A stretch of DNA of 64,000 nucleotides from an uncultured delta proteobacterium (GTDB taxonomy: Bacteria; Desulfobacterota; RBG-13-43-22): positions 64,001-128,000 of the forward strand of contig CAVQFQ010000015.1 of assembly GCA_963711835.1 (NCBI GenBank). The letters are read 5' to 3'. Below, piece after piece: positions 5,078 to 55,028 of this stretch. The notes under the pieces are model-generated. The model was not told where the DNA came from. It made no database searches and saw only the letters and a program-made list of their open reading frames with translations. The translations under genes and the position numbers were made by a program. Within the stretch, counting starts at the first letter, position 1. Every line of letters starts with the position of its first letter.

Positions 5078-5131
5078 CCCATCCACCCGTACCCAGGAGA
5101 TCCTGATCGTATTCCTTTGAAAATTTGATAG

Positions 5132-5453
5132 TGTCCCAAAGTTACGTGATTCTTACTCTGGGGGCATTTTTCTTGAGGCGCAAAATCCGTTTCTGAAGCG
5201 TCAGGGGGTCTTGATTTCGAGGATTGTCCACCCCCAAGTCCAGAGCTGGAAACCAGGCTGGAAGTGTCAAGGTTAGGTTTGAAGCAGGCCAAAACCAAAG
5301 CTATTTGCTGGACCGGGTGAATGCCCGGCACCAAATTCACTTATAGATAAGGGCCGGATTGGGGCTACGAATCACCCTTTGGACAACTTCGAAATCAAGA
5401 CCCCCTGACGCCTTTAAAAATCATAGAGGACTTCATCACGTAACTTTGGGACA
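5132..5453 (+). repeat. Nested inverted-repeat element, copy 1
   Basis: Perfect 19-bp outer IR (5132-5150 / 5435-5453); inner IR 5198-5230 / 5380-5411; 149-nt core homologous to the other copies. Confidence 0.9.
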
Positions 5454-8650: not shown

Positions 8651-8677
8651 TCCGGATGCCTTTTATTTTTGGAGATA

Positions 8678-8961
8678 GTCCCAAAGTTACGTGATTCTCA
8701 AACCGAAGGGTTTCAGGGGTCTTGATTTCAAGGATTGTCCGCCAAAACGCCAGCAGCCTGACCCGGGCAGGAAGATTATCAGTAGACTTAGAAGCAGGCC
8801 AACACCAAAGCTATTTATCGTCTTGGGTGAATGCCCGGCTCCCAACCAACTTAGACATTCGGGCCGGGTTGGGGCTATGGATACCCTTTCGGACAACCTT
8901 GAAATCAAAACCCCTGAAACCCTCTAAAAATGGAGTGTTTAACATCACGTAACCTTGGGAC
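8678..8961 (+). repeat. Nested inverted-repeat element, copy 2
   Basis: Outer IR 8678-8695 / 8944-8961; inner IR 8708-8741 / 8890-8922; 148-nt core. Confidence 0.9.
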
Positions 8962-9036
8962 AAACTTTATTTTTGGTTCTTTTCCGACAAGTTGTAAGAA
9001 AACCCAAGGGGTCGGGTTCGCTTCGGATAAAGGTCT

Positions 9037-12299: not shown

Positions 12300-12465
12300 G
12301 CCTTACACCTCCGACGCAAGATATTTAAAAGATTTATGTTTAGGTTTAATCTCCGGCTCTCAGGCCGCAAAAAGGGCTATCCCTGATTAGGATGTACTGA
12401 ACCTCACCACCTTTCTTTTCCGGATTACAGACGCCTCGGGATCAAACGGCTTCCTGACCGATAGG

Positions 12466-12567
12466 CGGCACAACCTTGAAATTTTGCCCCCTGAAGTCCT
12501 TTGGGGTGATTTAAGATTTTAAGAGGCTTCCCCTTCGGTTTGAGAATCACATAACTTTGAAACTATC
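12466..12567 (-). repeat. Nested inverted-repeat element, half copy 5 (left arms only)
   Basis: Reverse complement of 12531-12567 matches 8674-8710 at 34/37 nt; 12466-12499 resembles the inner arm. Core and right arms not recognisable. Confidence 0.8.
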
Positions 12568-17974: not shown

Positions 17975-18074
17975 GATACTGGATACTGGATACTGGATGA
18001 AAACAAAAAACGATACTGGATACAGGATAAAAAACAAGACCTGCCTTTTCCTTTTTCATCCAGTATCCAGTATC
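17975..18074. repeat. Heptamer (GATACTG)n array with an inverted partner
   Basis: GATACTG tandem units at left, CAGTATC units at right; related array at 54881-55028. Confidence 0.8.
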
Positions 18075-18086
18075 AATTAGTCCGAG

Positions 18087-35212: not shown

Positions 35213-35251
35213 AAGAATTTGCCTCCCGTAATCCGAACGAATTTTTAATTA

Positions 35252-35397
35252 ATGAAATTCGAATATCGAAATCCGAAACTCGAAACAAATCGAAATGACC
35301 AAAAATCTAAATTCAAAACGTTTAGTTTGTATTATTCGGATTTTAGAAATTTGAGTTTGTTTCGGATTTCGTGCTTCGTGCTTCGAAATTTATTCAT
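35252..35397. repeat. Heptamer (CGAAATY-like) array with an inverted partner
   Basis: AATTCGAATATCGAAATCCGAAACTCGAAACAAA ... TTTGTTTCGGATTTCGTGCTTCGTGCTTCGAAATT. Confidence 0.75.
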
Positions 35398-36964: not shown

Positions 36965-37262
36965 ATTAAGGATCTCATAATAGTCATGACCTTAAATTGA
37001 GAAGCTTGCATTAAATGGGACCGGGGGGTCTTTTTTTCTGGGTTGTCCACCTTCAAGCCCAAAGCTTCTTTCCCGGGCCAAATTCGGGATCACATTCAGA
37101 GACAGGCCTACACAAATGCCCGAAACGGATTTGAGTGTATGCCCTGCACCTAACCCAGTTAGCCGTCCGGGCCGGGATAGGGCGATGATTTACCCTTTGG
37201 ACAACCCCAGAAAAGAAGACCCCCCGGTCCCTGTTGGTCACTATTATTTTGAGACCTTTAAT
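36965..37262 (+). repeat. Nested inverted-repeat element, copy 4 (most divergent)
   Basis: Inner IR 37017-37049 / 37198-37231; imperfect outer IR 36965-36991 / 37236-37262; 148-nt core with AGGCC, ATGCCC, GGGCCGG and ACCCTT blocks in register. Confidence 0.85.
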
Positions 37263-37304
37263 ATGATTGATAGCCCGCATAGGTGATCCTGGCCATCCGG
37301 TTGG

Positions 37305-38966
37305 TCACTTCATCATCTCAATCGGCAGGTATTCTCCAAAGACGTCCCTTAAAACCCCGCAGATCTCCCCCAAGGTGGCATAGGCCCTGACGGCCTCAAG
37401 AAACAGGGGCATGAGATTCTCCTCCTCCCCGGCGGCCTTTCGCAGGGCCATCAGGGCGGATTGGACCCGATCCCCATCCCGGGTTTCCCTGAGCTGTCTG
37501 AGCTTTTCCTTCTGACGTCTGGCGTACTCGGGATCGGATTTAAACAGGGGGAGATCCAGTTTCTCTTCCACCTGGTATTTATTCAAGCCCACGACGACCT
37601 TTTTATTCTCCTCGATCTCCTTCTGGATGGTATAGGCCCGCTCTTCGATCTCCCTTTGGATAAACCCTTTTTCAACAGCGGCCACCGCCCCCCCCCAATC
37701 GTCCACCTGGGCGATCAGGTCCTTGATCTCCCGGACCATCTTTTGGGTCAGGTGTTCCACATAGTAGGAGCCCCCCAGGGGATCCACGGTATCGGTGGCA
37801 CCGGTTTCATGGGCGATGATCTGTTGGGTCCTCAAACTGAGCCGCACCGATTTTTCCGTCGGCAGGGCCAGGGCCTCGTCGAAGGAACAGGCCGCAATCG
37901 ATTGCGCCCCCCCCAGCACCGCAGCCAGGACCTGGTAGGCCACCCGAATAATATTATTCTCCGGCTGCTGGGCGGTCAGGCTTACCCCGGAGGTCTGGGT
38001 ATGGAAGCGCAGCATCCAGGACCGGGGATCCCGGGCCTTAAAGCGATCGCGCAGGAGATCGGCCCAGACCTTCCGGGCCGCCCGATATTTGGCCACTTCC
38101 TCAAAGAGCTTGTTGTGGGTATTGAAGATCCAACTGATCCGGGGGGCAAAGGCGTCAATGTCCAGGCCGGCTTTCAGACCGGCGTCCAGATAGGCAATGG
38201 CATTGGAGAAGCTGAAGGCGATTTCCTGAACGGCTGAACAGCCGGCCTCCCGCATGTGATAGCCGGCCACATTCACGGTATTCCAGAGGGGGACCTGTTG
38301 ACTGCAAAAGGCGAAGATATCCGTGATCAGGCGAATCGAGGGCTGAGGCGGGAAGATATACGTCCCCCGGACCGTGTATTCCTTCAGAATATCATTTTGA
38401 ATGGTACCACGCAATTTTTCGGCCGGGACCCCCTGTTTCTCGGCCACCACGATATACATGGCCAGAAGAACGGCCGCCGGGGCATTGATGGTCATGGAGG
38501 TGGATAGCCGGTCCAGGGGCAGTTCTTTGAAGATGATCTCCATATCCTGAAGGGAATCCACCGGAACGCCGACCTTGCCCACCTCGCCCTCGCTCATAGG
38601 GTGGTCGGAGTCGTAGCCGATCTGGGTCGGCAGGTCGAAGGCCACCGAAAGACCGGTTTGCCCGTATTGCAGCAGTTGTTTAAATCGTTGGTTGGTTTCT
38701 TCGGCGGTCCCGAACCCTGAATATTGCCGCATGGTCCAGGTTCGCCCCAAATACATATTGGGGTGCACCCCCCGGACAAAGGGATATTCACCCGGAAAGC
38801 CGCTGTCGCTCACATAATCCATCCCCGACAGGTCATCCGGGGTATAGAGCACCTCGATCGGCTCCCCCCAATCGGAGCTCTGCCGGTCGCCCCGGCACTT
38901 TTTCAGGAGGGTCTCGGTCCAGCGATTTTTTTCTTCCCTAATCCTGTCGTACGGATCCTTCTCCAT
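37305..38966 (-). CDS. B12-dependent acyl-CoA mutase large subunit (methylmalonyl-CoA mutase N-terminal domain)
   Basis: PGEYPFVRG, TMRQYSGFG, GLSVAFD, GTIQNDILKEY..RGT; no B12-binding domain. Confidence 0.93.
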   Translation of the reverse strand: MEKDPYDRIREEKNRWTETLLKKCRGDRQSSDWGEPIEVLYTPDDLSGMDYVSDSGFPGEYPFVRGVHPNMYLGRTWTMRQYSGFGTAEETNQRFKQLLQYGQTGLSVAFDLPTQIGYDSDHPMSEGEVGKVGVPVDSLQDMEIIFKELPLDRLSTSMTINAPAAVLLAMYIVVAEKQGVPAEKLRGTIQNDILKEYTVRGTYIFPPQPSIRLITDIFAFCSQQVPLWNTVNVAGYHMREAGCSAVQEIAFSFSNAIAYLDAGLKAGLDIDAFAPRISWIFNTHNKLFEEVAKYRAARKVWADLLRDRFKARDPRSWMLRFHTQTSGVSLTAQQPENNIIRVAYQVLAAVLGGAQSIAACSFDEALALPTEKSVRLSLRTQQIIAHETGATDTVDPLGGSYYVEHLTQKMVREIKDLIAQVDDWGGAVAAVEKGFIQREIEERAYTIQKEIEENKKVVVGLNKYQVEEKLDLPLFKSDPEYARRQKEKLRQLRETRDGDRVQSALMALRKAAGEEENLMPLFLEAVRAYATLGEICGVLRDVFGEYLPIEMMK

Positions 38967-38977
38967 GATGCTTCCTT

Positions 38978-39016
38978 ACCCTCACCCCATCCCTCTCCCG
39001 TCGAGGGAGAGGGGGA
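38978..39016. repeat. GC-rich palindromic repeat
   Basis: CCCTCACCCCATCCCTCTCCC-gtcga-GGGAGAGGGG. Confidence 0.7.
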
Positions 39017-39047
39017 ACAAAGGTCTTTTGTACGAGGTTATCCCCTC

Positions 39048-39824
39048 TTATTCTCCTTTGAAGACCGGTTTTCTTTTTTCCAGGAAAGCCGTTCGGCCTT
39101 CCTCGAAATCCCGGCTGCTGAAAGCCACGGCCTGCATGGTGGATTCCATTTCCAGAAACGAATCCAGGCCGGCCGGCCAATGGTTCAGGGCCGTCTTGAT
39201 CATGGCCAGCGATTGACCCGGCCCCTGGGAAAGACGGGTTGCCAGAGCCGAAGCCTCTTTCATAACCGCTTCAGCCGGAACCACTCGATTGACCAGACCG
39301 ATCCGTTCCGCCTCCCGGGCGCCGATCGGATCGCCGATGAACATGATTTCCTTGGCTTTAGGAAGACCAACCCGCAAGGGCAGGAGATAGAACAATCCCA
39401 GATCCGGGACTAATCCGATCTTGCTGAAGGTGACCGCGAAAGAGGCTTCTTCCGCTGCCACTAAACAGTCGCAGGCCAGGGCGATGCTGACCCCGGCACC
39501 GGCGGCCACCCCGTTGATCGCCCCGATAATCGGCTTTTCCAACTCCCGCATGGTCTTAATTAAGACATGGCCTTTCTTGAGGCGGAGCCGGGCCGCCACC
39601 GGGGTTAGCCCTTCCATGGTCCGGATATCGCCGCCGGAACAGAAGGCCTTGCCGGCGCCGGTAAGAATAACGGCCTTGACCGATTCATCGTCGCCGAGCT
39701 TTTTAAACAAGCCGGCCAGTTCCATCCGGATTTCCAGGCTCAAGGCATTTCGGATTTCCGGGAGATTCAGGGTGATTTTGGCCAGGCCGTGGTCCCGCTC
39801 CAGTAAGAGGGGGGTATTGCTCAT
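39048..39824 (-). CDS. Enoyl-CoA hydratase/isomerase (PaaG-like)
   Basis: FCSGGD, AAGAGVSIALACD and IGLVPD motifs. Confidence 0.9.
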   Translation of the reverse strand: MSNTPLLLERDHGLAKITLNLPEIRNALSLEIRMELAGLFKKLGDDESVKAVILTGAGKAFCSGGDIRTMEGLTPVAARLRLKKGHVLIKTMRELEKPIIGAINGVAAGAGVSIALACDCLVAAEEASFAVTFSKIGLVPDLGLFYLLPLRVGLPKAKEIMFIGDPIGAREAERIGLVNRVVPAEAVMKEASALATRLSQGPGQSLAMIKTALNHWPAGLDSFLEMESTMQAVAFSSRDFEEGRTAFLEKRKPVFKGE

Positions 39825-39873
39825 GAATCTCGCCCTTTCTTTTTGGGATTAAAGAGAAGCGCCTTTTTTAGCG

Positions 39874-39950
39874 TTGACAAGGACCCTTAATTAGGGGTAA
39901 ATTCTAAAATCTAATTAATAAATTAATTAAATCTTGAATAAATTGTCAAG
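39874..39950. promoter_or_regulatory. Divergent overlapping sigma70-like promoters with palindromic sites
   Basis: + strand TTGACA(39874)-N18-TAAATT; - strand TTGACA inside CTTGAATAAATTGTCAAG (39933-39950); lies between divergent operons. Confidence 0.6.
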
Positions 39951-39995
39951 TAAATATTTCATCGGATCGAAATTTAACCGATCCGGGAGGAAACC

Positions 39996-40769
39996 ATGGC
40001 CTTGGTCCATCTGGAAATCATTCAAAAAATTGGCCTGCTGACCCTTGACCATCCTCCGGCCAATGCCCTCAGCCCCGAGGTCCGGCAGGAATTTTTAACC
40101 AAACTTTCAATGCTGGCCGGAGAGGAGGCCGTCTGGACCGTGATTATCACCGGGGCCGGAGAGAAATTCTTTGCCGCCGGGGCCGATATCCCCGGCCTTT
40201 TAAAGCTGGACCGGGAAAGCGGTCTTAAACGGGTTCAAGGGGCACGTCTCTTTTACAGCGGGATTGCCTCCTTTAAAAAACCGGTCATTGCCGCCATCAA
40301 CGGCATTTGTCTGGGGGGCGGTCTGGAATTGGCCCTGGCCTGCGACCTCCGGATAGCAGCCGATCATGCCAAACTGGGGCTGCCGGAAGTCAACCTGGGT
40401 TTGATCCCCGGGGCCGGCGGTACCCAGCGCCTGCCCCGGGCCGTAGGTCCCGGCTGGGCCAATTTCCTGCTCCTGACCGGTCAAGCCATTCCGGCCCGCA
40501 AGGCCTTGGAAATTGGGTTGGTTCAGGAAGTTGTTCCCTATGAGGTTTTAAAGGAAACCGCCCTCGTTTTGGCCGAGCAGATCAACAGCAAAGGTCCCCT
40601 GGCGATCAGGGCCGCTAAAGAAGCGGCTTCCCAAACCTTCGATCATTCCCTGGAGACCGGCTTGGATCTGGAAAACCAGGCCTTTGCGGCCTTGTGCGCC
40701 ACCGAAGATAAACAGGAAGGTATTTCCGCCTTTCTGGAAAAACGAAAACCCCGATTCAGAGGAAAATGA
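39996..40769 (+). CDS. Enoyl-CoA hydratase
   Basis: FAAGAD, GGGLELA and LGLPEV motifs. Confidence 0.93.
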
Positions 40770-42040
40770 AGCCAGGCCCCCCTTCCCGGACTCGATCCTC
40801 CCGGATCTTCTTCGGCTGGGTTGTGATCGGCGGATTATTTATTACCGCCTGCTTCGGACCCATGGGGAGATATATCCTGACGGCCCTCTTCCCTTTTCTG
40901 ATGCAGGACCCGGGTTGGTCCCGGCAAACCATCGGCCTGGCTTTCACCCTCCATTTTTGGATCTATGCCTTCTTTGCCATTCTGGCCGGTAAGATGGTGG
41001 ACAGCCTCGGCGGCCGAGCCACCATTTTCCTGGGCGGTTTTTTAACCTTAGCCGGCCTGGTTCTGCTTTCCCTGGTAAAGGAAATCTGGCAATTCTACCT
41101 GGTCTTCGGGGTAATCCTGGCGGCGGCCGTTTCCATGACCCATTTCGTTCCCAACACCGCCCTGGTCAGAAAATGGTTTATCCATAAGGCCGGCCTGGCT
41201 ACCGGAGTGGTAACGGTGGGCACGGTGATCGGCTTCGCCTTCCTGCCTCCGATCATCAGCCAACTGAGCGCCCGAATGGGCTGGCGCAGCGCCTGTCTGA
41301 TCGCCGGGGGTGCCATGGGCAGCCTGATCATGGCCACGGCCTGGCTGTTAATCCGCAATAGTCCCGAATCCATGGGACTCCTGCCCGACGGAGAAAACCC
41401 CTCTCCCTCAGATGAATCCTCCGCAGACTTAGCGGGGGTTGAAGAACCCGGCCGGTTTACCACCCGTCAAACCCTGCGGGACCGGAATTTCTGGTATTAT
41501 TTTCTGGCCTATTCCATTACCGGTATCCCCATGCAGGGGATCTTAGGCCACGTAATCATCTGGGGGGTTGATCTGGGGTTTCCGGCAGCCAATTCCGGCC
41601 TTATCCTGGCCGCCCTCACCCTGCCCTCCATTCCGGTGCGCATCCTGGCCGGTTGGCTGGGAGACCGGTTAGGGAAAAAACGGGTCCTTATTCTATTCAC
41701 CCTTTACACGGTAGCGGTCTGGCTTCTGGGCTGGTTTATCATTACCGACCGCTGGTCTTTTATTGTTTTTATTCTCTTGCTGGGTTTCGGCTACAGCGCC
41801 CCTTTTTCTCTCTACACGCCTTTACTGGGTGATGTCTTCGGCCGACGGATCGTCGGGACGCTCATGGGCATCTTAACCTTGGGCCACGGTATCATCGGGG
41901 GTCTCGGCCCCACCTTATGGGGCTGGATTGCCGACCGGACCGGGTCCTATGTGCTCAATTGTCCGATCTCGGCCTTTTGCTATCTGCTGGTGGCTGTGTG
42001 TCTTTTTCTGTTTAAGGTGCCGGCGAAAAGGGAAGCCTGA
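40766..42040 (+). CDS. MFS transporter
   Basis: About 12 hydrophobic segments; GKMVDSLGGR and GWLGDRLGKK motif-A repeats. Confidence 0.9.
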   Translation: MKPGPPSRTRSSRIFFGWVVIGGLFITACFGPMGRYILTALFPFLMQDPGWSRQTIGLAFTLHFWIYAFFAILAGKMVDSLGGRATIFLGGFLTLAGLVLLSLVKEIWQFYLVFGVILAAAVSMTHFVPNTALVRKWFIHKAGLATGVVTVGTVIGFAFLPPIISQLSARMGWRSACLIAGGAMGSLIMATAWLLIRNSPESMGLLPDGENPSPSDESSADLAGVEEPGRFTTRQTLRDRNFWYYFLAYSITGIPMQGILGHVIIWGVDLGFPAANSGLILAALTLPSIPVRILAGWLGDRLGKKRVLILFTLYTVAVWLLGWFIITDRWSFIVFILLLGFGYSAPFSLYTPLLGDVFGRRIVGTLMGILTLGHGIIGGLGPTLWGWIADRTGSYVLNCPISAFCYLLVAVCLFLFKVPAKREA

Positions 42041-42192
42041 CCGATGACCGGAATAGAACGAATTCCCCTGTGGGGCAGGGGAGATTTTAGTCCGCCTGGG
42101 TCGGAGCGACTGGAAATGCTTCACCCCCGCATAATGTCACCCTATTTAAGTCGTTCGCAATAAATTAACACACGATCATTAAAGGAGGGCCT

Positions 42193-43161
42193 ATGTTTAA
42201 AACGCGATTTACCGAGCACCTGGGTGTGGAATTTCCGATTCAGTGCGGGACCATGATGAACATCAGCGATGGCCCGTTCGTGGCCGCCGGCGCCAATGCC
42301 GGCATCTTGTCCTGCCTGGCCTCGGCCATGTTTCCAACCGAAGAACTCCTGACAGCGGAGATCAAAAAGATCCGGGACCTGACCGACAAACCTTTCGGGG
42401 TCAATATCTCCCTCTTTCCCAGCCTCCTCCCCCTGCCGGTGGAGCGCACCCTGGATATCCTGGCCGACCAGGGGATTCGAATCTTGGAAACGGCCGGACG
42501 CAATCCCGGTCCCTACCGGGAGCACATCCAGGAAGGGAATTTTTATCATATCCACAAGTGCGCCCGAATCAGGGATGCTGTCAAGGCAGAAAAAGTCGGG
42601 GTGGATATGGTGGCTGTAGTCGGGACGGAATGCGGCGGCCATCCCAGCATGGAGGAAGTTACCAGCCTGATTTTGATCCCGGAGGTAGCGGATCGGATTC
42701 GCATCCCTCTCATCGCCGGAGGGGGCTTTTGTGACGGAAAGACGCTGGTAGCGGCCTTGGCCCTGGGGGCCGACGGGGTTTTGATGGGAACCCGCTTTTT
42801 ATTATCCCGGGATTGCCCGATTCATCCGGCCCTGATGGAAAAGCTGGTTCAGGCCCAGGAAACCGATACGGTCGTAATCCAGAAGTCTATCGGGAGCGCC
42901 GCAAGGGTCCTGAGAAACAAACGGGCGGAACAGGTTCTGGAGCTGGAAGGCAAAGGAACCCCCCTCGAAGAACTGATCCCTTATATCAGCGGCAAGATAA
43001 CCGCCACGGCCTGGAAAAGCGGCAGCGAGGAGGCTATTTTTGCCTGCGGTCAAGTGGTCGGAAGACTGCGGGAAACGCCGACCATTACCGATCTGGTCGG
43101 AAAAATCATGGAGGAAGCTCAAGAGGCGGCCCAAAAAATTTGGCAAATCAGAAATACCTGA
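42193..43161 (+). CDS. Nitronate monooxygenase/FabK-like flavin oxidoreductase
   Basis: KPFGVN, ECGGHP, IAGGG and GVLMGTRF motifs. Confidence 0.9.
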   Translation: MFKTRFTEHLGVEFPIQCGTMMNISDGPFVAAGANAGILSCLASAMFPTEELLTAEIKKIRDLTDKPFGVNISLFPSLLPLPVERTLDILADQGIRILETAGRNPGPYREHIQEGNFYHIHKCARIRDAVKAEKVGVDMVAVVGTECGGHPSMEEVTSLILIPEVADRIRIPLIAGGGFCDGKTLVAALALGADGVLMGTRFLLSRDCPIHPALMEKLVQAQETDTVVIQKSIGSAARVLRNKRAEQVLELEGKGTPLEELIPYISGKITATAWKSGSEEAIFACGQVVGRLRETPTITDLVGKIMEEAQEAAQKIWQIRNT

Positions 43162-43257
43162 GCCAAAAATAGGACAGAGGGGCTTCGAACTGCTTCTAGC
43201 CTAACTCTCAGGCCCTTTGAATAAATTTCTTTCTTAAATTCGAAAGGAGCATATCAA

Positions 43258-44130
43258 ATGGAAATTAACAAGGTTTTGGTCGTTGGCAGCGGGACCATGG
43301 GCATGGGTATCGCCCAGGTTTGCGCCCAAAAAGGAATTTCGGTGGTTATTTCCGATGTCTCGCAGGAAGTTCTGGATAAAGCGGTAAAAAATATCCGTTG
43401 GTCCGTCTCCAAGTTCATTGAGAAGGGTAAACTTAAGGAAGACCTGGAGACGGTTATGGCCCGAATCCAAACCTCTACCGGTTTTGAAGCGGCCTCCGAG
43501 GTCGACCTGGTCATCGAAGCCGTTTTTGAAAAAATCGAGGTCAAGCATGAGGTCTTTAAAAAAATAGATCCCCTGGTACGAGAGAAGACCCTGCTGGCTT
43601 CCAACACCTCGGCTATCCCGATCAGTGAAATTGCTGCGGCGGTCAGTCGGCCGGAAAATTTTGTCGGAATCCATTTTTTCAATCCGGTACCGATGATGGA
43701 GGCGGTGGAAATCATCAAGGGGATTTCCACCAGTGAGGCCGCCTTTCAAGCCGGCGGGGATTTTATCCGCCTCATCGGCAAGGAACCGATCATGGTCCAC
43801 CGGGATATCGCCGGTTTTATACTGAATAGGATCAATATGCTCTCCAATATGGAGGCCTATCGGCTGGTGGAGCAGGGAGTGGCCACTCCGGAAGACATCG
43901 ACAAAGGAATACGCCTGGCTTTTGGAAGAAAAATGGGACCCTTTGAAACCTCGGATCTGGTCGGTCTGGAAGTTCAGCTCATGGCCTACACCAATGTCTA
44001 TAATGAGGAGAAAGATACCCGATTCTATCCCCCTTCCATTCTAAGACAGAAGGTCCTGGCCGGCCACCTGGGCCGCAAGACGGGCAAGGGCTGGTACGAG
44101 TACAACCCGGACGGCACCCGGAAAAAATAA
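43258..44130 (+). CDS. 3-hydroxybutyryl-CoA dehydrogenase family protein
   Basis: GSGTMG.GIA, ASNTS, HFFNP and GRKTGKGWY motifs. Confidence 0.93.
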   Translation: MEINKVLVVGSGTMGMGIAQVCAQKGISVVISDVSQEVLDKAVKNIRWSVSKFIEKGKLKEDLETVMARIQTSTGFEAASEVDLVIEAVFEKIEVKHEVFKKIDPLVREKTLLASNTSAIPISEIAAAVSRPENFVGIHFFNPVPMMEAVEIIKGISTSEAAFQAGGDFIRLIGKEPIMVHRDIAGFILNRINMLSNMEAYRLVEQGVATPEDIDKGIRLAFGRKMGPFETSDLVGLEVQLMAYTNVYNEEKDTRFYPPSILRQKVLAGHLGRKTGKGWYEYNPDGTRKK

Positions 44131-44135
44131 AACCT

Positions 44136-44229
44136 CCAAGGGTTCGAGGGGTCGAGGATTCAAGGGTTCAAGTTAAAAGGGAAGAAAAACGTTTCCGAAC
44201 CCTCGGCCCCTTGAACCCTTGGACCCTCT
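44136..44229. repeat. Octamer (AGGGTTCR-like) array with an inverted partner
   Basis: CCAAGGGTTCGAGGGGTCGAGGATTCAAGGGTTCAAG ... GAACCCTCGGCCCCTTGAACCCTTGGACCCT. Confidence 0.8.
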
Positions 44230-44251
44230 TACTTTAAGAAAGGAATAATTT

Positions 44252-45025
44252 ATGGAACTAAAAAACAGCACCGCGATTATTACCGGAGGGGCATCAGGAT
44301 TGGGCGAAGCCACGGCCCGGGCCATCGTTCACGGAGGCGGGAGAGTGGCCCTGCTGGATATGGACCGGGAAAGGGGCGCACACCTGGCCGCCGAACTTGG
44401 GAAGACAGCCCTATTCTTCCAGGCCGATGTCAGCCAGGAAAAGGCCATGGATGAAGTGGTTGGGAAAATAAAGGAAGCCTTCGGCGCCTTTCAGGTTGTG
44501 GTCAACTGCGCCGGCATAGGCGGATCGGTTAAAGTTGTCGGCAAAGAAGGGGTCATGCCCCTGGAACGTTTTAACCGAACCGTCCAGATCAATCTGATCG
44601 GGACCTTCAACGTCATTCGGGCTACGGCCCCATCCCTGATGGAAAATACGCCGAATGGGGAAGGGGAAAGAGGGGTGGTTATCAATACCGCCTCTATCGC
44701 GGCTTTTGACGGGCAGGTCGGACAGGCCGCCTATTCTTCTTCGAAAGGCGGGGTAGTCTCCATGACCCTGCCCCTGGCCCGGGAATTTGCGGCCAACGGC
44801 ATCCGCATCATGACCATCCTCCCGGGAATCATGGAAACACCCATGTTGGCCAGAATGGAGGACAAAATCAAAGACCGTCTGGCCCAGCAGGTGCCTTTTC
44901 CAGCTCGTTTGGGCAGGCCCTCCGAATTCGCCTCTCTGGCCAGCCATATCATTCAGAACCCTTATCTGAATGGAGAGTTTATTCGATTGGACGGCGCCCT
45001 GCGCATGGGCTTCGGGAGAAAATAA
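44252..45025 (+). CDS. SDR-type 3-hydroxyacyl-CoA dehydrogenase (HSD10-like)
   Basis: TGGASGLG, NCAG, YSSSKGG and RLDGALRM motifs. Confidence 0.93.
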   Translation: MELKNSTAIITGGASGLGEATARAIVHGGGRVALLDMDRERGAHLAAELGKTALFFQADVSQEKAMDEVVGKIKEAFGAFQVVVNCAGIGGSVKVVGKEGVMPLERFNRTVQINLIGTFNVIRATAPSLMENTPNGEGERGVVINTASIAAFDGQVGQAAYSSSKGGVVSMTLPLAREFAANGIRIMTILPGIMETPMLARMEDKIKDRLAQQVPFPARLGRPSEFASLASHIIQNPYLNGEFIRLDGALRMGFGRK

Positions 45026-45124
45026 CAAGGGGGCTTCCCTTGGCCGAGATCCCCTGGTAGTTGAGGGTGGGGACTACGGAGGTGGCCCAGGCAATTAACC
45101 GGGAGGCGATGAAAATTATTCAGA

Positions 45125-45151
45125 CCCGAAGGACTTCGAGAGTCCTCCGGG
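45125..45151. terminator. Hairpin between convergent genes
   Basis: CCCGAAGGACT-tcgag-AGTCCTCCGGG. Confidence 0.45.
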
Positions 45152-45163
45152 CCCGCCATGGCT

Positions 45164-47686
45164 TTAGGAATTTTTTAGCAGTAACGGCAGGTAAAGATGA
45201 TAAAAATCTTTTAAAAGAATTATCCGGGACTCGCCGGGGATGCCGTTGACGAAGACGGTCAGTAAGGCGTGGCCAAACGGAAAACCGGTGACCGCCGTCG
45301 AGGTATAGGCGGTATCCGTGAAGGGATTGTTGGGATCCGGCGTAAGCCAGCGGACATGCTGGTTATCCAGGCGGTACAACTGAACCAGGGGATAGTTGGT
45401 GGCCGAATTGATTGAGTTTCCGCCGGAACCCTCGGCCAAATTGTATCCCCGGAACCCGGTCCCGGTCACCGAAAGCTGCCTTCCCGGGAATAAAGGCGAG
45501 GTGGCGCCGGTTACCGTGGGGCGCCAGGATTCAGAAAAACCAAGGCCGAGATCATAGAGTTCTGAGACCTTTGTTCCTTCCATTACAGCTACGTCACCTC
45601 CGACTACCAGCACTTTTCCGTTCGGAAGTAACGTGGAGGAGTGATGTTGCCGGCCGGTATTCAGATCGCCGGTGGCACTCCAGGTTCCTGAAGCCGGGCT
45701 ATAGATTTCGGAGTAACTCAAGTTCCCAAACCCCCCGGTCACCAGGACCGTTCCGTTTGGAAGCAGCGTGGCCCGGTGCAGGGCGCGAGGATTTAGCAGG
45801 CTGCCCGTGGCGCTCCAGGTCCCAATTCCTGTATCCGGATCGAAAATTTCAACACTCGAGGAGGGGTTGCTACCAATCCAACCTCCGGCTATCAAGACTT
45901 TGCCATTCGGCAGAAGCGAAGCCGTTTGACTGTAATGGCCCGTCGAAAGGTTCCCCGTCAAGGTGCAATTCCCGGAAGCCGGATTGAAAATCTCGGCCGT
46001 ATCCAGCGTGCTGCTGTTCCATCCCCCCGCTATCAGGACCCTGCCACTTGGCAATAACGTGGCTGTATGATAAGCCCTGGTACTATTAAGAGTGGTGGGT
46101 GCTGCCGTCCAGGTCCCCGAGGCTGGGTCATAGATTTCCAAGCTGTTCCAAAAATTACTCATGTTATTGGTTCCCCCCGCCACCAGTACTTTGCCGTTCG
46201 ACAGCAACGTGGCCGAATGACCGTAGCGAGGGGTTCCCATACTGGCAGTCGCACTCCAGGTCCCGGCTGTCGGGTCATACAGCTCGGCGCTTGACCGGAC
46301 GTCGTTAATGTAATGGAGATACCCCCCGGCTACCAAGACCTTGCCATTAGGCAGCAGGGTAGCCGTGTGTTCGGCCCGTGAGGAAATCAGGCTGCCGGTT
46401 TCACTCCAGGTGCCGTCACCCGGATCGTAAAGCTCGGCGCTGTCCATTGAAGTCCCGCCATTAGCCCCGCCCGAAACCAGGACTTTCCCATCAGGGAGTA
46501 GCGTCGCCTGGTGATAATACCTTCCATTCGACAGGCTTCCCGTGCTATTCCAGGCCCCTTCCGCATGATTTATAGATTTCGACGTCCGTCCAAACCCGAG
46601 ATCCCGTTATACCCCCCCGTGCTCAGGACCCGACCATCCGGCAGTAGGGTAGACGATGGTTGGCCGATGGGGACAGGCAGGCTGGCGGTAGAACTCCAGA
46701 GCCCGGTATCCGGGTCAAAGACCTCGGCACTGGCCAAAGGACTGAGGGGGCTGAGGCTGTTATATCCCCCCGTTACCAGGACTTTCCCGTTGGGCAGCAT
46801 GGAGGCCGAATGAAGGGCTCGGACAGCGTTCAGATTATTCGAGGTTGGCGTCCAGGTCTTGGCGACCGGGTCATACAATTCGGCGCTGTTTAAACAGCCA
46901 GTATTGGTAGTTCCCCCGGAAACCAGAACTTTGTTGTTCGGTAAAAGCGTGGCGGTATGATAGTTCCGAGCAGTAGATAGAAAGGTTGTTTCGGTCCAGG
47001 TACCGTTGGGTCCGATTGCCGGATCATAGATTTCGGCGCTGTTCAGAGAACCCCCACCGGTAAGCATGTTATAGCCACCTGTAACGAGGACCCTCCCGTC
47101 GGATAAAAGCGTGGCATTGTGTACGTAACGGGAGGTAGTCATACTGTTGCTTGTTGGGGTCCAGGTATCGGTTGCCGGATCGTAGATCTCAGCGCCGGAC
47201 AGATAGTCACTCCCGGTCCAGCCCCCAACGACCAAAACCCTGCCATTCAGCAAAAGGGTGGCGGTGTGCCCGTAACGTATATTACTCATGCTCCTTGCCG
47301 GACCCCAGGTCCCGGTGGCCGGGTCGTAGATTTCAGCTACTCTGAAGCGAGTTACTCCCATTGTACCCACCGGCTATCAGGACGTTGCCGTTAGGCATCA
47401 GCGTAGCCGTGTGAGAACCGCGTGAGCCCGACATGGCGCCTGTCGGACTCCAGGTCCCGGTGGCCGGATCATACAACTCGGCGCTGTTTAAAAAGCTGCC
47501 GTTACTCCCACCGGCGACCAGAACCTGCCCGTTAGGCAGCAGCGTAACCGTGTGTCCGCTGCGGGCCGTGGCCATAGGGTTAAGGCTCGTCCAGGAGGCC
47601 GCTTCTACTGGTGCGGCCAGTGGCGATAGGGCACTTAGCCCCAGCAGGACCAATAAAACAGTTAGAGAACGAAATGGAAATTTCAT
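45164..47686 (-). pseudogene. Secreted kelch-repeat protein (14 repeats), split by two frameshifts (~47340, ~46580)
   Basis: Signal peptide, repeated R..HTATLL.NG.VLV.GG...AE.YDP..G.W units across three ORFs, C-terminus YHLYLPLLLKNS. Confidence 0.85.
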
Positions 47687-47871
47687 AACCTTCCTCCGAT
47701 ATTAATTATTCCTAATTGAGGGCAGGTTATAAAATTGTTGTGAAGCAAGTCAAGAAGATAAATAGATCGAGGGGACATCCTATAATCTTCCTGTCAAGGC
47801 CTTTTTAAATCAGGAAAATATTGCAAAACCAGGCCGTATCCATTAACAATAAGAAAAGAAAGGAATGCCGG

Positions 47872-48711
47872 ATGGACAAATTAATCATTACCGCAGCCTT
47901 GACCGGCGCGTCTCCTACCAAGGAGCAAAATCCCCATGTCCCTTACAGCCCGGCTGAAATTGCGGCTGAGGCCCTGCGATGCTGCCGGGCCGGGGCGGCT
48001 ATCGTGCATATCCACGTCCGAGACCCGCAGAGCGGGAAACCCGCCTTTGAAAGAGCGCTTTTTGCCGAAGTGGTCGAACGCATCCGGGGGGAAACGGATC
48101 TGCTCATCAACCTGACGACCAGCGCCTTCAATCTGACCGGACCGGATGTGGGCCGCCGTCGTCTCATGCCCTTGGAGATGAAGCCCGATTTGTGTTCTCT
48201 CGATGTGGGCAGTCTTAATTTCCGGGAGGGGCGGGTCTTTGTCAATCCCCCGGACTGGGTGGAAACGGCCGCCGTCGAGATACGTAAAGCCGGAGTAAAG
48301 CCTGAACTGGAGGTCTTTGACCTGGGCCATATCCGCCAGGCCGTTGATCTGCTGAGGCAAGGCCTGCTGGATCCCCCAGCCTATTTTCAACTCTGTCTGG
48401 GTGTGCCCTGGGGTATCTATGGCGACATCGAAGGCCTCCTGGCCATGAAAAACCGGCTGCCCGAAGAAAGCCAATGGTCCGTTATGGGGGTGGGACCATT
48501 ACAACTTCCTTTGACGACCCACGCCTTGCTCCTGGGAGGACATATCCGGGTCGGTTTTGAAGACAACCTTTACCTGAGCCGCGGGCTGAAAGCCGATTCC
48601 AATGCCCGCTTTGTGGAACGGGCGGTAGCCCTGGCCGGACTTCTGGGGCGGGAAGTCGCTTCCTGCAGCGAAGCCCGGCGAATCCTCAATCTACCCGATA
48701 GGGAGAAATAA
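47872..48711 (+). CDS. BKACE/Kce (DUF849) family protein
   Basis: IITAALTG, HIHVR and RVGFEDN motifs. Confidence 0.92.
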   Translation: MDKLIITAALTGASPTKEQNPHVPYSPAEIAAEALRCCRAGAAIVHIHVRDPQSGKPAFERALFAEVVERIRGETDLLINLTTSAFNLTGPDVGRRRLMPLEMKPDLCSLDVGSLNFREGRVFVNPPDWVETAAVEIRKAGVKPELEVFDLGHIRQAVDLLRQGLLDPPAYFQLCLGVPWGIYGDIEGLLAMKNRLPEESQWSVMGVGPLQLPLTTHALLLGGHIRVGFEDNLYLSRGLKADSNARFVERAVALAGLLGREVASCSEARRILNLPDREK

Positions 48712-48739
48712 GCATACCCGGTGCCGGGATCATGAGGAG

Positions 48740-49537
48740 ATGGATATGGATTTAGGATTGAAAGACCGGGTGGCCCTGGTCTGCGGGGCCAGCAAAGGCT
48801 TGGGCCGGGCCGTGGCCGAAGGTCTGGCCCGGGAAGGGGCCGGACTGGCCATCTGCTCCCGGAGCGAGGAAAACATCCGGAAGGCCGCTTCGGAGATTTC
48901 AAACCAAAACAGCGTCGAGGTCTTAGGCTTGGCCGCGGACCTGTCGCGGGCTGAAGAGGCCGGCCAATTTTTTAAAAAAGCCCTGGACTATTTCGGTCGG
49001 ATCGATATCCTGATCACCAATGCCGGGGGCCCTCCCTCCCTGCCTTTCAGCGAGATCAGCGACGAGCAGTGGGAGAACGCTTTTCATTTGACTCTGATGA
49101 GCGCGGTTGTTTTGATCCGGGCGGTTTTGCCCGAAATGGAGCAACGGAAATTCGGCCGGATCGTCAACCTGACCTCCGTGGCCGTTAAACAACCCATCGA
49201 AGGCTTGATCCTTTCCAACACCCTGCGCTCCGGACTGGTCGGTCTGGCCAAGACCCTGTCCGCGACCTATGCTTCAGCCAACATTACCATCAATAATGTC
49301 TGTCCCGGATTCACCCTGACGGAACGAGTTAAAGAACTTTCCGAAGTGGTTGCTCAACGGAAAGGCATTGCCCCCGACCAGGTGATCCGGGAATGGGAGA
49401 CCCAGATCCCAATGGGACGGATGGGCCGGCCGGAGGAACTGGCCGATCTGGTGGTTTTTTTGGCTTCGGAAAAAGCCGGCTATATCACCGGGACCACTAT
49501 TCAGGTTGATGGGGGATACTATCGGGGATTGATGTAG
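48740..49537 (+). CDS. SDR family oxidoreductase
   Basis: GASKGLG and NAGGP motifs; LSNTLR instead of YxxxK. Confidence 0.9.
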   Translation: MDMDLGLKDRVALVCGASKGLGRAVAEGLAREGAGLAICSRSEENIRKAASEISNQNSVEVLGLAADLSRAEEAGQFFKKALDYFGRIDILITNAGGPPSLPFSEISDEQWENAFHLTLMSAVVLIRAVLPEMEQRKFGRIVNLTSVAVKQPIEGLILSNTLRSGLVGLAKTLSATYASANITINNVCPGFTLTERVKELSEVVAQRKGIAPDQVIREWETQIPMGRMGRPEELADLVVFLASEKAGYITGTTIQVDGGYYRGLM

Positions 49538-49569
49538 GGCCGGCGGACGAAATCACCGGATACAATTCG

Positions 49570-50133
49570 GCTCAGAGGAGGGTCATGACCGCCCCTGAGG
49601 TTAAGGGCATGGTCAGATTGTCGTCCGGTCCGAAAGGCAGGGCTTCTGCTGCGGCAGCCACGACAGCCCCGATCAAGACTTTCCAGAAAGGCACCAGGGA
49701 GAGAGCTAGACCAATAGCTCATACAGGCGCCCAGACAGGCCAGACTGCCCTCCAGGGATTTTCCAGGGAAAAGAGGGATGCGGCCCCAGCGGGAACCGAC
49801 CAGGGCAGCCGCCGTATCGCCCAGGATCATAAAGGTCAAGGCTAAGACGGCGATCGGTTTGGGATAGAAGGCCACTGACAAAAAGGACGAAAGCAACAAA
49901 TAACTGGAACCGGTCAGGGATTTTTTCTTTTCTTTTTGCCTGATTACCGGATTAAAAATGCGGCTCAACTTTTCATTCCAGGAAGGAATAATCAAGCGCA
50001 AGGCATCCCCGGTAATCCAAAGGGATGCGATGAGGCCCAGAACCCACAAAGCCGTTGAGGAGGAGACCAGCCAAACCCCTATGGGGATGGCCAAGGCGGA
50101 AAGGTGGATCGCTTTTCTTTTAACTTCGTTCAA
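49570..50133 (-). pseudogene. Diacylglycerol/polyprenol kinase (CTP-dependent) family membrane protein, 3' frameshift
   Basis: RKAIH, GDTAAALVG and KSLEGS motifs; the expected DDNLT motif is out of frame. Confidence 0.75.
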
Positions 50134-50156
50134 CTATTCCCCGTAAAGGAGGCCCA

Positions 50157-50663
50157 ATGGACCTGACCGTTTTTGAATCTATGGATAACACACAGATGAA
50201 AAGTTACCTGGAATTTTTACTTTGGCATTACCGGGTGGTGGATGCCTTCTGGTTTCTTTATGTGGCCGAGAAGTTCGACCAGCCCACAGCGGAACGGATC
50301 AACGAAAGGGTTTGGGCCCGGGTTCCGCGGATGGCGGCCAAAGATCTGATCAAACGATTTGACATCCAGGATAAGGGCCTCCAGGGATTTGTCAAGGCCC
50401 TGAGGCTATTCCCCTGGACCATCCTGGTCGGTTATGAAATCGAGGCGAAGCAGGATGAGGTCATCATCACCGTTCCCCACTGCGCCACCCAGGAGGCCCG
50501 GCTGAAACGGGGATTAAATGAGTTCGTCTGTAAAGACATGCACAAAGGAGAATTTGAAAGCTTTGCCCATGAAATCGATCCGGCCATTCGGGTTGAATGT
50601 CTCTTCGCCCCTCCGGATCCCCATCCCGAGGAACTGTTCTGCAAGTGGCGGTTTACCTTATGA
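50157..50663 (+). CDS. DUF6125-like protein
   Basis: [25 protein letters not shown]...CKWRF. Confidence 0.75.
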
Positions 50664-50728
50664 CGCCTTTAAGGACTTGGCTCCCCCCACTCCTTTAGGG
50701 CTGAAAAAGGCCGCACCTGAGAGACCAT

Positions 50729-51796
50729 TTATTTCAGACTGATGGCCTTCTCCGGACAAATTTCCTGACAGCAAAAACAGGTGATGCAGGTCTCGGCGTC
50801 CACGCGAGGGAGGTCGTCAGCCATGGACAAGGCCGATACCGGACACTGCTCGACGCAGGTGCCGCAACCGGTGCATAAGGCCGGATCGGCCTGGGGGCGC
50901 AAGAGTAATCGGCTTCGGAACATGGCTTGGATAGGCGTATCGGAAAGAATCGCTTCGCCACCCAGCGGAGGAAGCTTGAAATCGGGCACGGGTTTCAGCA
51001 CTCCCAGGATTTCGATGGTGCTGATATCGTAATCCCCCAGGCCCGCCTCCTTGGCCTTTTGCAGGAACCGCAGCCGCCCCGGTTCACAGCCCATCATGGC
51101 CGCCATAACCGCATCCAGGGCCACGGCGTTGTCGGAGGCCAGGATCAGTCCGATATTTCTGAGGTCAGGGGACGCCGGACCGTTGCCCTCCATGCCGACC
51201 ACGGCATCCACCAGAAAGAGATCGGGTACCCGGAGCCGGAAGACCTCAACCACCATGTCATTGAATCGTTCGGGGCTGCCGGCCGCTTTATGCAGCTTGG
51301 CTTTCTGGGCTCCGGGTAAAAAACCGTAACTGTTTTTTATGGCCCCGGTGACTACGGTCAGGCCGTGGGTTTTGAACTTCGGCAGGCTGATGATAATATC
51401 GGCTTCCAGGATGATACGGGAGAGGCTCACCCTGGGCATAAAAGCGGGATTGAAATCAACCTGCACCGAATCGGTTCCGATATTCCGATAATAGCCTTTG
51501 GCGGCATCCATCAGACCGGTTCTTTTAAAGCTGGCCTCATTGGCCCCATAGCTGAAAAGTCCCGGATTGTCGCCCACCACGATAGAGGCCGGTCCCATGG
51601 TTTCGACCTGGTCCACTACGGCCCGAAGGACCGCCGGATGGGTCACCAGCCCTTCTTCGGCCTCCGATTCCCGAAGGACATTGGGCTTTATCAGGACTTT
51701 TTTCCCCTGCAGGTCCAGGGGGAAGAGTTCAAAGGCGCGCTCTACTGCCGGCCGGACATTTTCATAGGCAGCCGGATGAATCATGACTTTAGACAA
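50729..51796 (-). CDS. DUF362 protein with C-terminal 2x[4Fe-4S] domain
   Basis: LIKPN, THP, PKFKTH motifs; CTGCGTC..QCP and CITCFCCQEICP; TTG start after GAGGAGG. Confidence 0.9.
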   Translation of the reverse strand: MSKVMIHPAAYENVRPAVERAFELFPLDLQGKKVLIKPNVLRESEAEEGLVTHPAVLRAVVDQVETMGPASIVVGDNPGLFSYGANEASFKRTGLMDAAKGYYRNIGTDSVQVDFNPAFMPRVSLSRIILEADIIISLPKFKTHGLTVVTGAIKNSYGFLPGAQKAKLHKAAGSPERFNDMVVEVFRLRVPDLFLVDAVVGMEGNGPASPDLRNIGLILASDNAVALDAVMAAMMGCEPGRLRFLQKAKEAGLGDYDISTIEILGVLKPVPDFKLPPLGGEAILSDTPIQAMFRSRLLLRPQADPALCTGCGTCVEQCPVSALSMADDLPRVDAETCITCFCCQEICPEKAISLK

Positions 51797-51854
51797 AGTG
51801 TATTCCTCCTCAGGGTTTTTCGGATGGAGCGAAAAACCGGCCAATAATTTTTTG

Positions 51855-52160
51855 GTATCGTTCAAAAGTTTCGGGATAAGCGCATTATGGCCTAACCAGG
51901 GGACCGGGGGTCTCGATTTCAAGGCTTGTCCAAAGGGTGATCCTTCCCGCCAATCCGGCCCAGATTTCTATGTTGGTTTAGAGCCGGGCATTCACCCAAC
52001 CGAACAAACAGCTTTGGTGTAGGCCTATTTAAGGCATTATCGTCAACCTTCCAGCCCGGTTTCAAAGTGAGGCGTTTATGGTGGACAACCTTGAAATCGA
52101 GACCCCCGGTCCCCTTCCATCGGGTATCAGAAATATAATGGTACCACTTTTGAACGATAC
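51855..52160 (-). repeat. Nested inverted-repeat element, copy 3 (core on - strand)
   Basis: Perfect 15-bp outer IR (51855-51869 / 52146-52160); inner IR 51899-51932 / 52082-52114; the reverse-complemented 149-nt core aligns ungapped to copy 1. Confidence 0.9.
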
Positions 52161-52341
52161 AAATTTTTTACGGATAAAAAGAATAAATTAGGGGAATAGC
52201 AGAGTCAAGGAAGAATTTGGAGGCTAATCAGGAACGGCCTGCGGACTTTGGGTTATTGGATGATCCGGGTGTTTTTTGTTTCCATCGGCAGCAAAAAGGT
52301 TTATAATTAATTTTTATTATGCGCTTATGGAGGATTTAAAG

Positions 52342-54880: not shown

Positions 54881-55028
54881 GATACTAGATGCTGGATACT
54901 GGATAAAAACAAAAACAATGCTTGATGAATACAAACAGCGGGGTCGGCAAATATTACTTTCCAACAGGGACGTGACTTATTGTAGTTATCCAGTATCCAG
55001 TATCGTTTTTCGCCTTTATCGAGTATCA
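54881..55028. repeat. Heptamer (GATACTG)n array with an inverted partner
   Basis: GATACTAGATGCTGGATACTGGATAA ... TTATCCAGTATCCAGTATC. Confidence 0.75.

Follow-up and report, generated by a model that had tools for sequence, protein, structure and literature searches.

How can the two arms of a short palindromic element change from copy to copy and still match each other? The question is raised by a stretch of 64,000 nucleotides (hereafter the window; positions 64,001 to 128,000 of contig CAVQFQ010000015.1, assembly GCA_963711835.1) from an uncultured delta proteobacterium of the Desulfobacterota lineage RBG-13-43-22, which carries four such copies. All four consist of an outer inverted repeat, a spacer, an inner arm of 32-34 bp ending in TTGTCC (the clamp), a core of about 150 bp, and then the mirror image of these parts, and each has a single unpaired base (the bulge) beside the clamp. 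This anatomy, described in an earlier note made from the sequence alone, is borne out by our analysis, as is the side of the unpaired base (5' arm in copies 1 and 2, 3' arm in copies 3 and 4), provided that it is read in the orientation of the core. We refer to the inner arms and core together as the module and to the surrounding repeats and spacers as the shell. The explanation that we favour, and consider probable, is that a hairpin module of about 215 bp sits in unrelated small shells, its arms being copied and its core flipped in place by template switching or short-homology recombination, with the bulge as a one-base difference of long standing that falls just within the copying zone.

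The module belongs to a sizeable family. A profile search of the genome from which the window comes (G000, 89% complete) yielded 145 loci, 121 of them with the full module of about 215 bp. The full copies are distributed in subfamilies A (43), B (28), C (17), D (22) and E (3), with 6 others, and the family counts exclude two copies on contig C27 that duplicate regions of C17. The model of the module matches 18 of 20 other genomes of the same taxonomic family; in a phylum sample of 146 genomes from other families it has no match. A second large set, of 77 copies from four genomes of genus g2, was parsed out of the 89 loci of g2 and g3. All the genomes compared are assemblies, and the public runs are contigs only, containing at most 0.18 of the words; no strand-change joint is listed for them, which speaks neither way. 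No description of the module was found in the literature searched, which included few subscription papers.

The inner arms do vary between copies with matching changes on the opposite side, as had been proposed. When arms were compared within and between copies, on more than the 20 copies that the earlier note had called for, within-copy mismatches were lower in each of the subfamilies A, B, C and D (1.02, 0.79, 1.18 and 2.00, against 1.55, 1.71, 1.96 and 4.07 between copies; each p<=1e-4 in 10,000 permutations, a significance that is overstated because the copies are related). Rare variants, defined as those carried by one or two copies, lead to the same picture: 7/26 in type A and 7/22 in type B are present on both arms, where shuffling the arms among copies gives expectations of 0.23 and 0.29. 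Pooling A and B, 14 of the 48 rare inner-arm variants are mirrored (0.5 expected), compared with 3 of the 72 in the outer repeats (Fisher p=2.4e-4). Type C, left out of the pooled test, shows mirroring in 7 of 25 variants, including shifts in the length of a G run, and type D, also given apart, in 5 of 18 (19 of its 22 copies). Short type-D hairpins that lack the core have mirrored variants too (nine listed). There are some ten of these core-less copies, with a stem of 11-13 bp closed by a one-base loop of T or A (for example G000 C26:3526-3661 and C5:104779-104916).

The mirroring has a marked polarity along the arm. Among 74 g2 copies, mirrored and one-sided changes number 133 and 34 at arm positions 0-16, 3 and 8 at positions 17-22, and 1 and 24 in the inner 7 bp, counts that do not represent independent events, as the copies are related. 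At positions 5-6 of the g2 arm, about 60% of comparisons between copies differ and only 5-6% of those within copies. Some 7-13 bp short of the arm's inner end, at the place occupied by the bulge, the mirroring fades, and one T-to-C variant, found in 11 g2 copies at the place equivalent to the bulge, is always on the same arm. The suggestion that pairing rather than sequence is selected is not shown by the mirrored changes, because templating alone would yield them, and the inner 7 bp tolerate one-sided mismatches. In addition, the sequences of blocks in the arms and of four boxes in the core are conserved across genera.

The outer repeats had been described as unrelated among copies yet each paired with its own partner. 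Their types indeed differ and pair, but they do not change from copy to copy: each type is common to 17-43 copies and keeps its differences between left and right. In type A none of 38 rare outer-repeat variants is mirrored, and in type B 3 of 34 are, two of the three apparently out of register; the outer repeat of copy 4 is itself imperfect. The wholesale change between copies is thus mostly subfamily structure, and the unrelated outer repeats are those of different parent transposons, each shared by many copies. They pair because they are transposon terminal repeats, and templating is not needed to account for them.

The parents of two shells could be recognized. A scan of metagenomes with the type-A repeat returned six elements of about 1.45 kb that have the same ends and one long frame each (L104 and five other loci), and the one protein scanned among these autonomous elements belongs to the ISH6 transposases (428.7 bits), as does the protein encoded between type-B ends at L148 (463.9 bits). 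These two proteins, from frames of about 460 aa, were scanned with the NCBIfam family model NF041731, which has a cut-off of 240 bits. The autonomous ISH6 elements with A or B ends hold no module within the ends shown, and no ISH6 gene was found in G000 at its 89% completeness. Shells A and B, and with them window copies 1, 2 and 3, are therefore ISH6-type MITEs (small transposable elements with inverted repeats). Duplications of 8 bp flank 25/38 type-A and 19/28 type-B copies, and an empty allele of copy 2, in which the flanks are joined without the element, is present in one contig of run X10. Since the shells end in transposon repeats, are flanked by target duplications and in one case have an empty allele, shell and module move as a unit. 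Seven of 12 scorable type-C copies have TTAA at both ends, in line with the preference of IS5-type elements for 4-bp duplications of this kind, and we take the type-C shell of copy 4 to be IS5-like. No autonomous partner with type-C ends was found in viral contigs, fetched loci or G000, and such viral matches as the B and C terminal repeats gave were due to chance.

Shell D is of another kind. It has ends of about 45 bp and 25 bp with TTAG-like edges and no terminal inverted repeats, and in other families it holds other palindromic passengers or almost nothing. It is a generic carrier across the phylum, with at least four other passengers and no autonomous partner seen (loci L413-L415, L421, L429, L431, L432, L436, L438-L440 and L442). 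Related genomes carry the module in additional shells, so that at least eight kinds are found overall.

Within these shells the core is found in both orientations, the two being represented 32:11 in type A, 25:3 in B, 14:3 in C and 14:8 in D, and 53:21 in g2 (74 scorable copies, the other 3 of the 77 being ambiguous). Orthologous insertions indicate that the flips occur in place. Between genomes, 4 of 10 orthologous sites have an inverted core. One of these is among the four two-armed insertions shared by G014 and G010 (L269 and L056), where the same genes flank the element, 1532 bp of flanking sequence are 91.5% identical, the core is inverted and one arm position is changed, A/G, on both arms; the other three insertions keep their orientation. 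The remaining inversions are at three of six sites shared by g2 genomes. At another g2 pair (L214/L336) the cores are 98.7% identical and in the same orientation, with one mirrored substitution, and one g2 site is present in three mirrored arm versions in three genomes. The proposal that one arm is templated from the other during propagation is therefore upheld in its first part, for the inner arms, but propagation is not needed, as orthologous insertions differ both by inversion and by mirrored substitutions. The exchange points are not constant. In 11 flipped type-A copies the extra base has stayed with the core, on the 5' arm, in eight, has changed to the 3' arm in two and is on both arms in one, while a marker 19 bp further out (position 8) is homogenised in 8/11; as the two segregate variably, there is no fixed crossover.

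The bulge was the feature that had led to the idea of a protein reading a folded single strand, as in attC sites or REP (repetitive extragenic palindromic) hairpins, and it had been thought present in every copy at a fixed position. Its position is fixed where it exists: in 90 of the 121 full copies of G000 a single unpaired base lies no more than 3 nt from the clamp, and only 13 other indels were counted at arm positions 4-24 of the 121. However, 30 copies have no bulge and one has two, and it is missing from 17 of the 22 type-D copies and from all 77 g2 copies. Among the 90, it is on the 5' arm in 51 and on the 3' arm in 39, and the base is A in 56, C in 17, G in 15 and T in 2. With whole subfamilies and a genus lacking it, with base and side variable, and with none of 41 loci of Y1/RAYT genes carrying the module (the family holds more Y1 loci than these 41), the proposed recognition is not borne out, and the bulge is probably dispensable as a signal. 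One old indel that travels with the core and is rarely reached by conversion would account for its pattern.

These observations can be joined in a simple mechanism. A nascent strand would copy the inner few bases of the second arm, fold back on the first and copy its outer part, thereby homogenising the arms; alternatively, it would switch to the sister template and copy the core backwards, resulting in inversion. The fold-back switch would need the inner bases to be paired first, which would predict the polarity observed. Because either route would need a paired inner seed, differences at the inner end, such as the bulge and the g2 T-to-C variant, would rarely be erased and would move with the core. 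Over time the arms of each subfamily would drift and yet stay complementary, and no dedicated enzyme would be needed. That template switching yields both arm homogenisation and spacer inversion is described in PMC8604942. Recombination across the 30-34 bp of homology is an equal candidate, and the data do not separate the two.

Several points weigh against this reading. The spacer of the module is about 150 bp, and the spacers described in PMC8604942 are of 70 bp or less, short ones favouring switching. In the same elements the outer repeats show hardly any mirroring, which their shorter arms and larger distance could explain; a matched control family is lacking, as the genome has only 25 other long inverted repeats, with no family of more than two members. 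The conservation of the g2 arm is blocky (about 1.5 bits at positions 5-6, about 0.2 bits or less at positions 8-12), which neutral copying does not predict, and the four boxes of the core persist from one genus to another. On one arm, the place beside the clamp also takes up other small hairpins (L444, L453 and L460), a possible sign of a nick site. The cores of the more distant orthologous g2 sites resemble each other no more than random copies do (ranks from 4 of 12 to 24 of 29), and replacement from other copies may contribute there. Finally, every sequence used is an assembly. The mechanism also leaves unexplained how the module enters different shells and why its boxes are conserved.

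An alternative invokes a dedicated enzyme, and such an enzyme is possible. The module might be an independent non-autonomous single-strand element, REPIN- or TIRtron-like, whose fold is read by an HUH or other nuclease that nicks near the clamp, copies the arms, flips the core and inserts the module between the ends of insertion sequences, the boxes rather than the bulge serving as the read-out. We consider this unlikely. The presence of the module in at least eight kinds of shell, with no duplication around the module itself, speaks for it, and so do the other palindromic passengers of shell D, the sharp inner limit of the mirroring together with the insertions next to the clamp, and the boxes, conserved across genera, whose fold-back leaves one G.G and one C.C mismatch, whichever the strand, without covariation. 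The arm motif GGGGWC resembles the TIRYT motif GGGGWSAS given in PMC3733652, and the arms of enterobacterial REPINs differ by one base according to PMC8049555. The full GGGGWSAS motif, however, is missing from the arms, the consensus GGGGWC not being followed by A[CG]. Y1 genes are present in all 21 genomes of the family, including two without the module (G011 and G018). No gene lies between module halves in G000, at 31 unpaired-arm loci of G007 or at 20 half-hit loci from three other genomes, and no module-specific gene was found at the Y1 loci, the unpaired arms or the half-modules, nor any match in viral contigs. A search with PF06782 gave no match anywhere, the control sequences being likewise unmatched, and so carries no weight. 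In the copies inspected the module was never outside a shell, and its crossovers vary.

We are similarly doubtful of a hitch-hiking hairpin, in which a nuclease of the host or of a mobile element would read the boxes, nick beside the clamp, rewrite an arm, flip the core and plant the module between the ends of unrelated insertion sequences (IS), which would then amplify it. Some observations on the boxes, the clamp and the Y1 genes are recorded here in their own right. The four boxes (window 37073-37175, for example) make the whole module a degenerate inverted repeat of about 100 bp, and in g2 the ends adjacent to the clamp have changed places with respect to the boxes, which suggests that an inner part was inverted long ago. 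Small GC-rich hairpins have inserted into the module, or replaced part of it, at its central loop and beside the clamp (L444, L448, L452, L453, L459, L460 and many G000 copies). Twelve Y1 matches in the genome (L001-L012) include many frames of 290-340 aa between short inverted repeats that start with GGGG and are TIRYT-like. One candidate, L041, was discarded, being a chance pattern match.

Template switching or recombination in place also has to be set against selection that keeps the arms paired because the hairpin acts for the host as RNA or cruciform (a terminator, a stabiliser or a structured RNA), which we regard as very unlikely. The stems are long and stable and 19 of 46 predicted pairs are changed on both sides. 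Nevertheless, these changes are in the arms, except for one core pair in a single sequence, and no box pair is among them; that 12 separate young copies should each have undergone compensation in two steps is implausible when 34 one-sided variants have been tolerated. There is no Rfam match, the gene context equals the background (65 tandem, 23 divergent and 15 convergent among 103, against 64/21/15%), the strand of the core is random (32 versus 33), and the inversions are left unexplained. A site-specific invertase that flips the core at the arms, in the manner of hix sites, has still slightly less in its favour: both orientations are indeed seen in all shells and at a single locus, and the arm blocks are conserved, but exchange has taken place to either side of the bulge, conversion tracts are up to 25 bp long, the window copies have no recombinase gene beside them, and the core is geneless and free of strand bias. 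The least credible possibility is that mirroring and flips are artefacts of collapsed inverted repeats, for which the use of metagenome assemblies throughout would allow, since collapse would favour the high-coverage consensus over rare variants, both the bulge and one-sided differences survive, the arms, at about 33 bp, are far shorter than reads, and the pattern recurs across many independent assemblies.

Among known systems, integron attC sites share with the module an imperfect hairpin with unpaired bases, but the module copies are dispersed singly, on random strands and with no cassette array, and their bulge is variable in base, side and presence; nor does the clamp match RYYYAAC/GTTRRRY, which we take to be the consensus of the attC boxes. 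A non-autonomous IS200/IS605 element would have separate subterminal hairpins at non-complementary ends and no target duplication, an identity rejected for shells A, B and C, which end in inverted repeats and are flanked by duplications; shell D, with no terminal repeats, is left unassigned. ISH6 IS elements and MITEs share their terminal repeats and 8-bp duplications with shells A and B, but their autonomous members lack the module, which in turn is present in non-ISH6 shells as well. REPIN/RAYT and TIRtron/TIRYT systems (PMC8049555, PMC3733652 and PMC8266576) have inverted arms with a spacer, at least 100 intergenic copies and an occasional one-base asymmetry, as the module does; the module differs in having no common GTAG-type tag (GTAG is in some D arms only), no cognate Y1 gene with arms (0 of 41 loci), a dispensable bulge and target duplications of DDE type. 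The Correia elements (CREE) of Neisseria are described in PMC9778887 and PMC10969869 as multi-copy, with inverted repeats of 26 bp and a core of about 105-155 bp, and reported in the latter to invert. They thus share with the module inverted repeats around an invertible core in many copies, but the CREE repeats are the ends of the element, whereas our inverting module is nested in other ends and has no duplication of its own. Quasipalindrome correction as described in PMC8604942 likewise combines arm homogenisation with spacer inversion, reversibly and recurrently, but the cases are yeast genes in which the arms measure 7-16 bp and the spacers do not exceed 70 bp; in the module the arms are of 30-34 bp, the spacer is of 150 bp, and hundreds of bacterial repeats provide a measurable inner limit. 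The module therefore resembles an invertible Correia-type core or a REPIN-like doublet, and is set apart from attC, REP/REPIN, TIRtron and IS200/IS605 by the tests applied.

Module copies in the window and their parts (positions of the window)
Feature	Position	Strand	Description
Copy 1	5131..5453	+	type-A terminal repeats with spacers that are atypical; arm pair 5198-5229 / 5381-5411; extra A at 5223
Copy 2	8672..8967	+	type-A shell with ends of ISH6; arm pair 8707-8740 / 8891-8923; extra A at 8734
Copy 2 duplication	8664-8671 and 8968-8975		
One-armed relic of a type-A copy	12464..12567	-	
Copy 4	36966..37261	+	type-C shell with hairpin module; TTAA at both ends
Copy 4 left terminal repeat	36970..36984	+	partner 37240-37257, imperfect
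Copy 4 inner 5' arm	37017..37048	+	ends in TTGTCC clamp (37043-37048); mismatch at 37033
Copy 4 core, 150 bp	37049..37198	+	boxes 37073-37078, 37103-37108, 37141-37146 and 37169-37175
Copy 4 inner 3' arm	37199..37231	+	one extra C within the run 37205-37208, exact position ambiguous
Copy 3 target-site duplication	51846..51853	+	second occurrence 52162-52169
Copy 3	51854..52161	-	type-B shell (ends of an ISH6 lineage) with module; core on minus strand
Copy 3 arm (3' arm in core orientation)	51898..51931	+	unpaired C at 51925
Copy 3 opposite arm (5' arm in core orientation)	52083..52115	+	

Other repeats were seen in the same DNA. Between its genes the window has further repeats, palindromic or tandem-inverted, of several types that are usual in this bacterial group (17975-18079, 35248-35397, 38980-39017, 44140-44225 and 54881-55027). 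The minus strand at 45164-47686 holds a gene with many repeats of about 48 codons, kelch-like by eye and apparently frameshifted, its pieces lying in at least three frames (45164-46447, 46570-47370 and 47333-47686). Elsewhere in G000, type-A elements have inserted into type-D and type-C modules, in the T-rich stretch of the arm, and are nested there (C17:14335-14697, C25:45105-45234), and a 2.2-kb element with a short frame resembling a helix-turn-helix protein and a 451-aa frame lies inside a type-B module (L029, C10:53700-55870). The latter was considered as the gene of the module and rejected as a separate passenger, the 451-aa frame having no NCBIfam family and a weak match to DDE_Tnp_1. 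A further MITE family of about 130 bp has its own terminal repeat (e.g. C8:71964, C10:18467 and C19:47569), and several of its copies carry an A/G variant on one side together with its counterpart on the other.

All together, the module is real and mostly explained by known processes, with a conserved passenger that these processes leave unexplained. Where a long intergenic stem shows perfect 'compensatory' change, copying at the DNA level can be the cause, which makes such change a trap for the inference of RNA structures or recognition sites. With hundreds of copies, internal markers and orthologous sites, the family is a natural experiment on arm conversion, its polarity and spacer inversion over a 150-bp loop in bacteria. 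One conserved module, restricted to a single family, is shared by at least eight kinds of transposon end, and a dedicated enzyme, if there is one, would represent a new layer of parasitism on insertion sequences.

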